Of a stretch of DNA of 64,000 nt, positions 14,054 to 21,532 are shown piece after piece. The translations under genes were made by a program, and so were the position numbers. Every line of letters begins with the position of its first letter. Position 1 is the stretch's first letter. The notes below the pieces were generated by a model. The model did no database searches. It saw nothing but the letters and a program-made list of their open reading frames with translations, and had not been told where the DNA came from. Origin of the DNA: Podarcis cretensis (Eukaryota); assembly GCA_951804945.1 (NCBI GenBank), contig OX638152.1, positions 12,524,001 to 12,588,000 of the forward strand. Reading direction: 5' to 3'.

Positions 14054-15146
14054 GTAAGTCCACTCCAGAGCACTGATAAATTTGGACTATCATCTAGCAC
14101 AGCACAAATAGGAAAGCTGTGGCCCTCCGAATGTTGGGCTTCAACTCCCATAAAATCCAGCCATCATAGCTAGTGATCACAGATTATGGGAGTTGTAGTC
14201 TAATAACACCTGGGGAGTCACAGTTCAAAAAGTGTGCAATGAATTCTCTAGGCCTGGGGTCAGTTTGAAACAACATTGTTTCCCCACTTGCATGACATTT
14301 GGGGCTATATGGCAATGGGTAATTTGCATACAAAATTCACATGAACTTTTATTATTGATTGATTGATTCATTGATTGAATTTATATACCATCCTATACCC
14401 GGAGGTCTCAGTCTGCTTGTCATGTGACTGAGGCTTGCTTTGCTGTAGTGGAGACCAGACCATGGCATTACAGAAGTACAAGACTTCCATCAGCAATTTA
14501 AGCATTATGCACTATGAGGCTAACACCATGTAGTGATAGTTTATCATTTTAAGACATTTATTTATCTGAGATAAATTTATCTGGCCATGTTAAGTAAATG
14601 GCAGTTTGTGGGCATTCTCTAAAGTTGGATGGGCATTCTCAGCTGGGAGCTACATTCCAGCCATACAAAAGCCAGAGATGTTCCTTTAAGTGGCCACACG
14701 CACAACCTTCAAGCAGGCAAGTAAGAGGACTTGTCACAGTTCAAGGACACCTTCCAGACAGGCAAAGCATCCAAGGACATGGAGCAAGGTCAGTGGGGGA
14801 GTGTGGCCTTGAGAGAGTAGAATAGAGAAAGTCCTAAGGGCCAGATAGCAGGGCCTCATTTGATCCTCAGGCTTGGAAGTTTGTCACATGGGGCAGCAGA
14901 AGGCAAATGCCATAGTTCAGTGTTTCCCAACCTTTTTTGGGCAAAGGCACACTTGTTTCATGAAAAAAATCTCGAGGCACACCACCATTAGAAAATGTTT
15001 AAAAAATTAACTCTGTGCCTATATTGACTATATATAAAGTAACTCTCTTTAATAGGAATCAAATAAACACAAAGAAAGTATTTTATAATTACTTTATTAT
15101 GAAATAGTAAGTAAACAGAAATATGAAAAATTATAAAATACTTTAT

Positions 15147-15851
15147 TCAGTGCGCAACCTGGGCCTGTTTGGCTGAACACAAAGCTGATATTCTGGCTGG
15201 AATCGAAGAAAGACACACACGTAGCTCTTCGTCAACAGCTCTCAGTCTCTCTCTGTATTTAGTTTTTATAGCAATCATGCTTGAAAAGCTCAACTCACAG
15301 AGATATGTAGTGGAAAATGGGAGCAATGTCAAAATAGCTTTGTTTGCCAGAAGGGGGAACTCCTTGGCAGTTTCCAACCAAAAACTGTCCAAAGGTAGAT
15401 CAGCAAATCTTAGCTTGAAACCACGATTTTGTCTCAGTTCAGTTAGTTCCTCCTGCTCCTGTAAAGTCATGTCCTTTCCACCAACTGATGCTGAGCTATA
15501 AGGGTCCCTAACCCAGTCAAGGCATTCAGTGGAGACTGAAGAGAAATAAAATGACAACTTCCCCTCGAGAGTTTTTAAATGTTTACCTATTATCTCACAC
15601 AGTGCAGCAGTGTGAACACCTTGCCATTGCTTGGTGAGTGTGAACATTTCAAGATTGCCACTTTCCACGTGTTGATGCCAGAGTTGCACCTTTGAACGGA
15701 ATCCATTTATTTTATCTGTACTTGTAAGCAGGTTTTCATTTCGGCCTTGCATTCGTGTGTTCAGTTCATTCAGATGATGAAATATATCTGCCAGGTATGC
15801 CAGCCTTGCACACCACTCATCACTTGCAAGCAGCTTTGCGTAATCTGACCT
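15147..15851 (-). pseudogene. Buster transposase, C-terminal part (catalytic Glu and hAT dimerisation region)
   Basis: [20 protein letters not shown]...WVRDPY...FW...[17 protein letters not shown]...K.R.RL; in frame with 18337-19512 after removing the L1 insert. Confidence 0.93.
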
Positions 15852-16215
15852 CTCATTTGTCAGAAACACTTTATTTATTTTTTAAATGATATTTATTAAG
15901 TTTCACAAAATATAACAAACTTCGAAACAACAAACAACAAACATCAAAAATACAAACAATATCAAAAATCATAAGAAAAAAAAACATGGAAAAGATTCAA
16001 CATAATAATAAAAGAAAAATTAAAAGAAAACTCTGGTTCATTCTAATAGTCTTCAAAACCTTATTTTCCTTGCTTCCTCCCGCCTTCCCTTCTTGTATTC
16101 CACTTTAAAAGTTTTTTCAGCAAGCTCATTCATATTCGTTTTCATCCTTTATCTTTCCCTTTATACTCTTCCTTATCCTAATCACTAGAACCCCAACATT
16201 TCATTTACACTGCCC

Positions 16216-18336: not shown

Positions 18337-19512
18337 CTCATTTGTCAGAAACACTTTAAGTTCCTCCCGCAGCTCATACACACGAACCAAGACCTTGCCA
18401 CGCGACAACCACCGGACCTCCGTATGAAACAGCAAGGTTTTATGCTTCGCTCCCATCTCCTCACACAAAGCTGCAAATATGCGACTTTTCACGGGTCGTG
18501 ACTTTACAAAGTTTACCATGCGCACAACATCATTCAACACATGAACTAGGTCTGCTGGTAAAGTCTTGGCTACGAGGGCCTCACGGTGCAAAAAACAATG
18601 CGTAACAATCACATCTGGATTTCTTTCCTTCACTCTGCTTACAAAGCCTTTGGTGTGCCCGACCATGGCTGCAGCTCCATCGGTGCAGACACTTGTGCAG
18701 TTTTCCCACTTAAGCCCTCCTTGTTCAAGGTATTCTGATGTGACCCGAAAAATTTCTTCTCCTGTTGCTTTTTCTGGCAATGCCTTGCAGAAAAAGAAGT
18801 TTTCTCTAATTGCATCACCATCAACAAAACGCACATTGGCCAAGAGTTGAGCATGTCCACTGATATCAGTAGACTCGTCAAGTTGTAATGCAAATTTCTC
18901 ACTGCTATGGATCTTTTCCAAAACCACACTTTCAATGTCTGCAGACATGTCATTAATACGTCTGGAAATTGTGTTGTTTGAGAGAGGGACTTTGGCTATT
19001 TCCTTAGCTGCTTCAGGTCCGAGCATCTCCTCTACAATAGCTTTGCAGGCGGGAAGTATTAATGTCTCTGCCACAGTGTGCGACTTTTTTGACTTGGCTA
19101 TAAGTTCAGCAACGTGATAGCTAGCTTTAAGACCTCTTTCATTTACCTTTGAGGTTTGTCTCATGAAAGTTGCCTGTTTCTCCGTGTTTTCACGCAGGCG
19201 AACAAAATAGTCCGCATTCTTGTTTTGAAGCGAAGGGTGTTTCGTTTGGAGATGGCGTTTAAGTTTGCTTGGGACCATAGCACTGTTAGCTAGCTTTTCA
19301 CCACACACCACGCACAGTGGAGTTGGTTGGTTTGCATCTCCGGTGAAAGTAAATCCAAATGAAATATAGCTTTCGCTATATTGCCTTGTGCCAGAGAATT
19401 TGCTTGAGCTAACCATCTTTGCTTTCTTTTCATGCCCACTCATACTTGGGCTCTCATCTGGCTCCAAATTTTGTTCAGAGTCCAGTTCTTTTCTTTTCAA
19501 AAACTTTTCCAT
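18337..19512 (-). pseudogene. Buster transposase, N-terminal part (BED zinc finger, first two catalytic Asp, CxxH, RW)
   Basis: ATG at 19512 (MEKFLKRK); CVVC...RHLQTKH BED finger; [37 protein letters not shown]. Confidence 0.95.
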
Positions 19513-21532
19513 CACTGCAGTATCCGGCCATCCAATTGCCACTGACAAACGGATACAGACCCCTTTTTCTTACAGCACAGCTCGCACAAATTTACACGCA
19601 ACACCCTTTTCGAATTAAAACACACAGTCTCACGAGAGCAAGGAGCAGCGATTTTATATTTTACGAAAAGAAGTCGCCAGAATCATACCACACATGGTGC
19701 CATCTGCGTGGAAAAAAAAAGCTTCCGTGTGTGTGCATTCCCTGTGGCCACTGTATCATTTAAACCTACATGCACTCATGCCAGAGCAGGTGTCTTGAAT
19801 CCCCAGAGCACTAATACTGCACATGTCGGCGAGGATACACCACAGCTGCTTTTCTCTTTAAACCATACTATAATCAGAGTAAACGACCCCTAGCAAACCC
19901 TGCTGAGGGTTTGCAGTTTGCACAGTCCGAGCTCACGCGTGTTCCCTGCAACTCCGCCTGCCTCCAACGGGACGTGCTCCCAAGTAAGCGCGTTTAGCAC
20001 TGCGGTGCTCGTTTGCCTGGTGATTTGCAATGGTCGGTGCTGGGCGATATTGTGCCCCGCTGGGCTTGTTTACGGAGCTCGGGCCTCCTCATGGAGTTGC
20101 TGGCTAAGTGACGGGTCTCCTGAACTTCTCAGGTATCCCGGTTCCCCAGAGGGCATAATGATCGCTGCCACGCGGGGTAACGTTACAAGGGCAAACTCCC
20201 GCTCTCGGGAGCCGAGGGCAGCAATTCCACGTGGCTGGAAAGAAAATGCGTGGAGCGCCTGCACGCCGGGAAGGGGCAAGATTCGGCTCCGTAGCAACCG
20301 GGAAAGGTGCAAAGCGTGTGGCACGTTTCAACTACCGGCTCCGGGCTCCCTCGGCCCCAAGCGGGAGGGGGGCGCCGAAAGAACCCGCCGCCTTTTTCCT
20401 GCTCCCGCGGCGAGGCTTTGCACTTTCTTTCCGGTTCTCTCCCCTGCGCCGTTTCCTAAATTTTCCTCTCGCCCAAGTCCTGCCAACTGCGAAAGTCAAC
20501 TGCCAACTGCGAAGAACCGTAGGACTGGGGGGTGGGTGGGTTGGAGAGAGAGCGCCGCGCAAGAGACGCTCCTCCTCCCTCTTCTTGCCCCCCTTCCTTC
20601 TCCCCCCCTCTTTTTTTCTTTCTTTCTTGCTGCGTCTGTTTGTACTTTAGCTCGCCCGCCTCCCTCCCATGGCACACCAGGCAACGTCTCGCGGCACACT
20701 AGTGTGCCGCGGAACACCGGTTGGGAAACACTGCCATAGTTTAAACTGCAGTGAAAAACTTGAGTATTTGGAACTGCAGTTGAAAGATTCGCCACACGGG
20801 GGAGCTGTATGGTTCAGCAGTATGTGATAAGTGAAGCCTAGTCCAGAAAAGCTTCTGCTTTAATAAATCTGTTAACATTTACACTCTAAAGTATGTCAAC
20901 ATCATTTCCAGTAATCTGTAATTCCTCTAACACAAAATAGATTAATTATCATTTTCCAATTGTTCACCGAGTAGCCCACCTTTCATTGTGATGCATTGCC
21001 AGGTTTAATTCCCCCTTTAGGGCTTAACCTGAAGCAGGGCATAGTTCTGGCCTCTAAAGGGTCAACTCTCTCTTTTAGAACATACAAAATGACAAAGAGT
21101 GCACAAAGAGTATATAACTGCAACCAGTTCTGTCCCCCAGGAGGTCACAGAGTGAGTCTCCCATACAGGATTGTTTCCCACCGCTTCTCACTTATGAAAT
21201 TAAATTGTCTGTTGCAGATGGGGACTGCCTTTTCCTAACCAGCTCTGTGAGTTCAAATCTGAGCTGAGGTTTGAATCCTCCGCTCAGAACCTGTGAAAGC
21301 AGGTTGCTTATGCCATTTTCATTCATTTTTTCCTAAGGCAACAATCCCAAGTACACTTCCTAGGAAGTAAATCTAATGGGACTCAGTGGAACTTGCTTCC
21401 AAGCAAATATGCAAAGGATTGTGCTGTTAGATTATTAAGATGACAGGTGATTAAAGACTTAGGTTGGGAAGCTGGTATGCACCTGCAATATTTGTCAGCT
21501 TCCAGTAGCTTTTTCATCTGGTCTTTTAACAG

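Follow-up and report, generated by a model that had tools for sequence, protein, structure and literature searches.

How a transposon stays expressed and escapes silencing after it has jumped into a new host is an open question, and work on the "blurry" promoters of Tc1/mariner elements addresses it (PMC5570127, PMC6446368). Here we bring this question to a locus of the lizard Podarcis cretensis, a stretch of 64,000 nucleotides (assembly GCA_951804945.1, contig OX638152.1, positions 12,524,001 to 12,588,000), hereafter called the window, which carries at 14918-20733 on the minus strand a Buster-type transposon of the hAT superfamily. An initial annotation of the window had described this element as a near-pristine transposon and had overlooked that most of its leader is captured host DNA. 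On the whole we consider it probable that the element belongs to a young family of likely horizontal origin, that this copy was broken by an L1 retrotransposon, that the leader was replaced by host DNA likely through template switching, and that the captured DNA would likely now serve as the transposase promoter.

Captured host DNA in the transposase leader

The element ends in terminal inverted repeats (TIRs; CAGTGTTTCCCAACC) that are 100% complementary over 15 nt, and is flanked on both sides by the same 8-bp target-site duplication (TSD; CCATAGTT). Removal of the nested 2463-bp insert together with one duplicate of its target site gives an element of 3331 bp with a transposase frame of 626 aa, running from the ATG at 19512 to the stop at 15147 and holding the motifs CVVC/HLQTKH, LDESTD, TDGA, CFLH, RW and LCELSFS. 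The initial annotation was therefore right about the perfect ends and about a frame that a nested L1 had disabled. The parts of the element are as follows.

14910-14917, no strand: first TSD copy, CCATAGTT (nnnTAnnn)
14918-14932, minus strand: right (3') TIR, 15 bp
14933-15146, minus strand: 3' non-coding end of the element, retained in the non-autonomous family F too
15147-15873, minus strand: 3' part of the transposase coding sequence (CDS), with catalytic E578 and one 22-bp copy of the L1 TSD (15852-15873)
15874-18336, minus strand: nested L1, in the same sense as the transposase
18337-19512, minus strand: 5' part of the transposase CDS, with BED finger, D212, D278, CxxH, RW and the second L1 TSD copy (18337-18358)
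19513-19526, minus strand: remnant of the native leader (its final bases), mostly common to the older subfamily D
19527-19680, minus strand: captured host DNA 1, 154 bp from C19:29.4006-29.4008 Mb, common to subfamilies A, B and C
19677-20652, minus strand: captured host DNA 2, 976 bp, 97% identical to a CpG island at C5:45.0134-45.0144 Mb
20653-20733, minus strand: left end of the element, 81 nt, with the TIR at 20719-20733
20734-20741, no strand: second TSD copy

Young copies of the family have near-identical coding sequences and leaders that bear no relation to one another from about nt 82 up to the final 14 nt ahead of the ATG. Three autonomous subfamilies can be told apart in this way, namely A (the window copy and three others), B (15 copies) and C (four copies and one deleted copy), whose coding DNA is 99.3-99.4% identical (0.6-0.7% difference). 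In the window copy, captured host DNA makes up approximately 1.13 kb of the leader's 1.22 kb. The larger piece comes from the single island on C5, another chromosome, where neither TIR nor transposase is found, and judged from the sequence alone it is read away from a putative non-coding first exon at the donor. In subfamily B, nt 81-748 of the leader derive from C5:87.15 Mb, where an eIF5A-family gene has its 5' end, and run antisense to that gene; within this piece a tandem unit of about 98 bp (leader nt 187-290) is present in one to five copies, the donor having one. Nucleotides 116-305 of the subfamily C leader derive from C4:80.586 Mb, upstream of exons with an E2F/DP domain. All three subfamilies share a piece from C19:29.40 Mb that ends 14 nt before the ATG and measures 154 nt in A, about 280 nt in B and 365 nt in C; its donor lies about 9 kb upstream of a single-exon open reading frame (ORF) with a POU-homeobox.

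Each of these four donors is a single locus with no TIR or transposase in the 10 kb examined, and three of the four are CpG islands, as against seven of 417 background windows of 500 nt taken from insertion flanks. An Rfam search of the four donor loci gave no match. The gene belonging to the A donor was not identified among 247 host frames over 90 kb, the only gene match near it being an exon of ADAM10 type, which lies about 30 kb from it on the opposite strand; an open frame of 345 codons without a Pfam match lies about 25 kb from this donor (locus L205:200-1234, minus strand).

Capture is also seen in copies without a whole transposase gene. Three older truncated copies, subfamily E (C3:47.35, C10:73.53 and C16:24.41 Mb), carry the first exon of ENTREP1 (FAM189A2) with its splice donor and about 1 kb of the sequence that follows. 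This exon is 98% identical to Podarcis and conserved across amniotes, and a foreign origin of the cargo could be ruled out, the best protein matches being to Podarcis. The non-autonomous family F is filled with 800 bp of CpG-island-like DNA (GC 65%, CpG observed/expected 0.72). The opposite direction, in which the "donor" loci would be decayed copies of the element that have lost their ends, is hard to bring together with donors that run seamlessly into larger islands, exons and splice donors, that adjoin the eIF5A and DP-family exons and have no element ends or transposase nearby, or with an E cargo exon conserved across amniotes, and we give it next to no credence. At the level of sequence, then, these comparisons demonstrate that an autonomous hAT element has serially taken up host promoter DNA in its leader.

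The capture changes how the CpG content of the element is read. The initial annotation had taken abundant CpG as a sign of youth; the observed/expected ratio is indeed 0.84 in the leader and 0.60 in the 5' half of the CDS, whereas the 3' half (0.33) resembles the window flanks (0.34-0.35), and much of the richness of the leader is explained by the captured host DNA.

Age, class and origin of the family

A genome search with a piece of the CDS (1.5 Gb, 51 contigs) gave at least 40 matches, of which 39 besides the window copy were examined. Twenty-two carry the TIR of the window copy at both ends together with a perfect TSD, and the other 17 are older and mostly have the TIR variant CAGTGTTTTTCAACC. 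Among 21 young copies with a start codon, the window copy excluded, 15 hold the unbroken frame of 626 codons, and 13 of these 15 retain all 11 motif residues that were checked. No whole frame was seen in any older D or E copy examined (15 of the 17 with both ends), the longest reaching 541 aa. Young copies differ from their majority sequence by 0.31% and six older D copies by 1.25%, so the very recent age proposed for the element holds. The branch between D and the young copies is 1.5% long with a dN/dS of 0.97, and none of the 24 aligned copies is intermediate. All 64 complete young copies examined have a perfect 8-bp TSD, with TA at positions 4-5 in 63 of them, and thus the TIR and TSD structure of the window copy is not due to chance. 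Autonomous copies are 2.6-3.6 kb long. In one B copy 26 nt are missing immediately inward of the left TIR, but the copy is flanked by a perfect TSD of its own and its frame is open, which hints at where the minimal left end may lie.

The most numerous member is family F, 1.1 kb (1.13 kb) long and without a transposase gene. A search for the exact left-end pattern found 67 sites, and 41 of the 50 examined belong to F (mean pairwise divergence of the 41 copies 1.3%); a pattern from the filler matched 63 sites. The window copy had been proposed as a template for reconstructing an active transposase, a use that falls away with 15 natural copies already holding the whole frame: among the members of this very young family it is an ordinary, dead one, and nothing has to be reconstructed.

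The assignment to the hAT superfamily, and through the TSD consensus to the Buster family, stands on several features. The TSD is of the nnnTAnnn form and 8 bp long, the TIR is 15 bp, and the transposase model, built from 83 sequences (pLDDT 83.7), has a Hermes-like DDE fold with BED finger, CxxH and RW, the top ten Foldseek matches all being Hermes (E 4.6e-11 to 7.7e-9). A sequence search of the PDB with the transposase gave no match, and Pfam gave a sub-threshold zinc finger only. The motif residues are conserved among homologs, which are named ZBED5-like or SCAND3-like, names that we take to be those of Buster-derived proteins; the tree of these homologs was made without reference Ac, Tip or Buster sequences.

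That the element was a candidate for horizontal transfer is borne out in the protein comparison. Among the matches listed, the closest named proteins are those of Podarcis muralis (96.5%) and Zootoca (95.7%). In a quick tree of 30 named rows chosen from 120 listed matches, frog (93.7-95.8%), newt (about 94%), garter snake (93%) and spider (92%) fall into one clade with the lizard copies (SH-aLRT 100), followed by Xenopus, tunicate and fishes at 81-88%. Vertical inheritance within squamates would fit the lacertid nearest relatives, and the comparison is one of proteins and not of DNA; it does not fit frog, newt and spider copies in one clade with lizard and snake copies when another snake copy is only 78% identical, and identities of 92-96% in such distant hosts would be hard to reach by descent because the copies evolve without constraint. 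We therefore regard vertical inheritance as very unlikely, and horizontal transfer as well supported in a comparison made at the protein level, with contamination of the other assemblies possible.

Proposed route of capture and possible role of the captured DNA

The junctions of the captured pieces in A and C have 1-2 nt of microhomology, and in B a 17-nt copy of nt 44-60 of the element itself lies between two host pieces. Such junctions are what gap repair with template switching would leave, as in the model proposed for Pack-TIR elements (PMC8277862). A stub of the C-type left end persists in A and F and a part of the C19 piece in A and B, and C is therefore likely the oldest captured form. 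The order of events may thus have begun with the native leader of the D type, from which capture of the C19 piece and of the piece of a DP-family promoter would have given C; afterwards replacement by the eIF5A promoter piece would have given B, and replacement by the island at C5:45.01 Mb would have given A, each leader variant being then multiplied by transposition. The captured island would drive the transposase, in A and B presumably from the divergent side of a bidirectional promoter.

Several observations weigh against the simplest form of this account, in which the captures were recent, took place in this genome and supplied promoters. The first concerns the donors. Between copies of A and their donor the difference is 1.3-2.1%, close to that among the copies themselves (1.6%), whereas the B, C and C19 pieces are approximately 3-7% from theirs, above the 0.6% that separates the CDSs of the subfamilies, and simple recent capture in this genome does not explain such divergence. 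Rather, it points to a capture that took place in a sister lineage, to error-prone copying, or to recombination of copies with one another. In the first of these cases the young family, with its C19, C and B captures, would have arisen in a sister lineage of lizards and returned to this genome through hybridisation or by being transferred a second time, and A alone would have been captured here. The long branch without intermediates between D and the young copies fits this history, as does a shortened native leader with the young junction in P. muralis model P0003 and in reads of organism J (introduced below), a form not found in any of the loci examined here. Error-prone synthesis during template switching, or recombination of copies as reported for hobo_AC of Anolis, could on the other hand mimic the pattern; the segments are short (150-660 nt), and for B the two methods disagree (3.8-5% by BLAST, about 7% by MAFFT). 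Passage through a sister lineage is thus possible, if somewhat short of an even chance.

Some donors are also missing. That of E was not found, a search with ENTREP1 exon 1 giving paralog-level matches only (77% in DNA; 53% and 43% in protein), and the host exon is possibly absent from the assembly through a gap. That of the F filler was not found either, the 18 filler-pattern matches beyond the exact left-end list all being further F copies. Likewise no donor was found for the D leader, which gave 23 matches, most of them at known copies and the remainder unfetched.

The remaining objections concern promoter function. We used four RNA runs of organism J, two of them stranded, whose relation to this species is by label only and whose reads show fixed differences from the A copy used; runs X15-X20, from amphibian and other metagenomes (shares 0.17-0.22), were left aside. 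RNA covers the CDS in sense in the two stranded runs and is joined to the D-type native leader at -17, and depth is near zero on the A piece and on most of the C19 piece. The family is transcribed in organism J, but not from captured DNA, and J may lack the subfamilies with captured leaders. Furthermore, with a GC content of 0.47 the C19 piece beside the ATG does not count as a GC-rich island; it also introduces an ATG at -19 that is out of frame, and 13 upstream ATGs lie in the A leader as a whole. Family F has an island-like filler and no gene, and so capture of an island needs no promoter role.

In organism J many reads join DNA of the DP-family island, from just upstream of the piece captured in C, to the last approximately 75 nt of the element (L063:6011 and L103:4638-4670), and a further sequence joins at L063:5971. 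The join to the island would reflect either that DNA was captured there a second time or that an insertion within the island has left a remnant.

Two accounts of the function have to be considered here. The captures may be real and yet neutral filler, if gap repair copies open, unmethylated chromatin so that CpG islands are over-represented, and if the transposase came from host read-through at one or a few source sites or from lost D copies. The filler of F, which has no ORF and is still the most amplified, the RNA reads with the native leader only, the absence of purifying selection on the branch between D and the young copies, and Anolis hobo_AC, which takes up genomic DNA and keeps its replicative ability (PMC3014272), all fit with neutral filler. 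What speaks against it is that the cargo of all three autonomous subfamilies sits in the leader and has replaced nearly all of the native leader with CDS and 3' end left whole, and that no intact D copy was seen; neutral filler is accordingly conceivable, though we stop short of calling it probable. Because A, B and C have lost the native leader and no whole-frame D or E copy was seen, the likely source of recent transposase is either captured DNA or transcription reading through from host genes. The more specific proposal, that the family serially exchanged its own promoter for CpG-island promoters of the host (eIF5A, DP-family and others) and used them for transposase expression, is put forward tentatively.

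The family offers a direct test, with one transposase under four alternative leaders (native D and captured A, B and C), known donors for three of them, and natural intact copies. Whichever reading holds, a lizard genome has very recently been seeded with dozens of CpG-rich, promoter-like pieces and with a first exon together with its splice donor.

Insertion context and comparison with known systems

The L1-type element that broke the window copy is flanked by a perfect 22-bp duplication (15852-15873 and 18337-18358) and has an A-rich 3' end. It is not a plain 5' truncation: its 5' end, 5' untranslated region (UTR) and part of ORF1 are joined near 16680 to the end of ORF2 and the 3' UTR, with 3.67 kb deleted between them and 2 nt of microhomology (TA) at the junction, a structure that rules out splicing as the cause of the gap. 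Nor is the deleted form a family of its own: of 4954 candidates 40 were scored, and the window copy alone was found to cross the junction. The insert matches, at 98.1-98.3% identity, a full-length copy in which neither ORF is interrupted (362 and 1245 aa, with Exo_endo_phos and RVT_1), copies of this kind being found at C5:48.37, C4:45.60 and C2:40.80 Mb, and the parent L1 family is on this sequence evidence likely still or recently active.

The Buster element has inserted, in antisense orientation, into an intron of a host gene, which we take to be DDIAS and whose product has an RPA-type OB fold. The exons on its two sides are:

13944-14053, plus strand: likely first coding exon of the host gene (M...YPSCQNC..., GTAAGT donor), upstream of the insertion
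21444-21695, plus strand: frame with the next host exon, Rep_fac-A_C-like OB fold (E 7.9e-6, below the Pfam cut-off)

The final exon of this gene, of 841 codons, is at 26785-29310 (plus strand). Elsewhere in the window there are a likely bidirectional CpG promoter at 6571-6804 (minus strand) beside a signal-peptide exon at approximately 6800-7400, presumably PRCP-like; the first exon of a Rab-family gene (Pfam Ras), presumably RAB30, at 40342-40851 (minus strand); two near-identical short repeats at 8277-8823 and 23246-23750; and what we take to be a 3' fragment of an RTE/Bov-B-like element at 5867-6571.

The lizard family resembles the Buster elements TcBuster and AnBuster in the nnnTAnnn TSD, TIRs of 14-16 bp, a single ORF that encodes BED and DDE domains in about 600-680 aa, and a wide horizontal spread (PMC12637253, PMC3517528), and its ends lie within the 5-27 bp given for hAT TIRs and the nnnTAnnn consensus given for Buster TSDs (PMC3517528). 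Buster elements are described there as 2.5-3.0 kb long, as against 2.6-3.6 kb here, where the leader has been exchanged for host DNA. Gene-transfer tools based on Buster exist (PMC12637253), and the young family is a candidate for a natural vertebrate tool of this kind that needs no reconstruction. Transfer of a hAT element among turtles, fishes and a frog has also been reported (PMC11008031).

As for the cargo, animal Pack-TIRs are the closest parallel, for they include hAT elements in which host DNA lies between the TIRs, with microhomology at the junctions and an origin by gap filling or FoSTeST template switching; one frog case has a 5' UTR fragment in three copies (PMC8277862). Host sequence between TIRs together with a separate parental locus is likewise found here for A, B, C and the shared piece. 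Whereas multicopy Pack-TIRs number four of 281 (PMC8277862), at least five cargo-bearing multicopy subfamilies occur here within one family, with three to about 63 copies each, and unlike Pack-TIRs three of them are still coding and carry the cargo in the transposase leader. Pack-TYPE elements are defined as non-autonomous (PMC6379663), which applies to E and F and not to A, B and C with their whole-frame copies. Anolis hobo_AC is also a young autonomous hAT element of a lizard whose lineages differ by incorporated genomic DNA and recombine; it is a hobo-clade member, however, and the accessible description gives its cargo as genomic DNA with fragments of old transposable elements, with no promoter or first-exon leader cargo found there (PMC3014272). 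Bat Helitrons have captured and amplified host promoters with first exons (15 genes, 4,690 copies), but they are rolling-circle elements that capture by bypass of their end, and the promoters drive host or chimeric transcripts (PMC4778049).

In the part of the literature that we could cover, Repbase not included, there was no report of this family, which may therefore already be named, nor any account of an autonomous cut-and-paste element that has serially captured promoters in its leader, and the TIR sequence searched as text gave no match. The coding element itself is of a known kind; what appears to be new is that Pack-type capture occurs in autonomous elements, serially, and in the transposase leader. 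In mammalian L1 the 5' UTR has been serially replaced by unrelated promoter-like regions along a continuous coding lineage. That element is a retrotransposon, whereas the lizard family moves by cut and paste and its donors can still be found, and if the promoter reading is true, promoters would be exchanged as in L1, yet by an autonomous DNA transposon whose donors, junctions and intact copies all persist in one genome.

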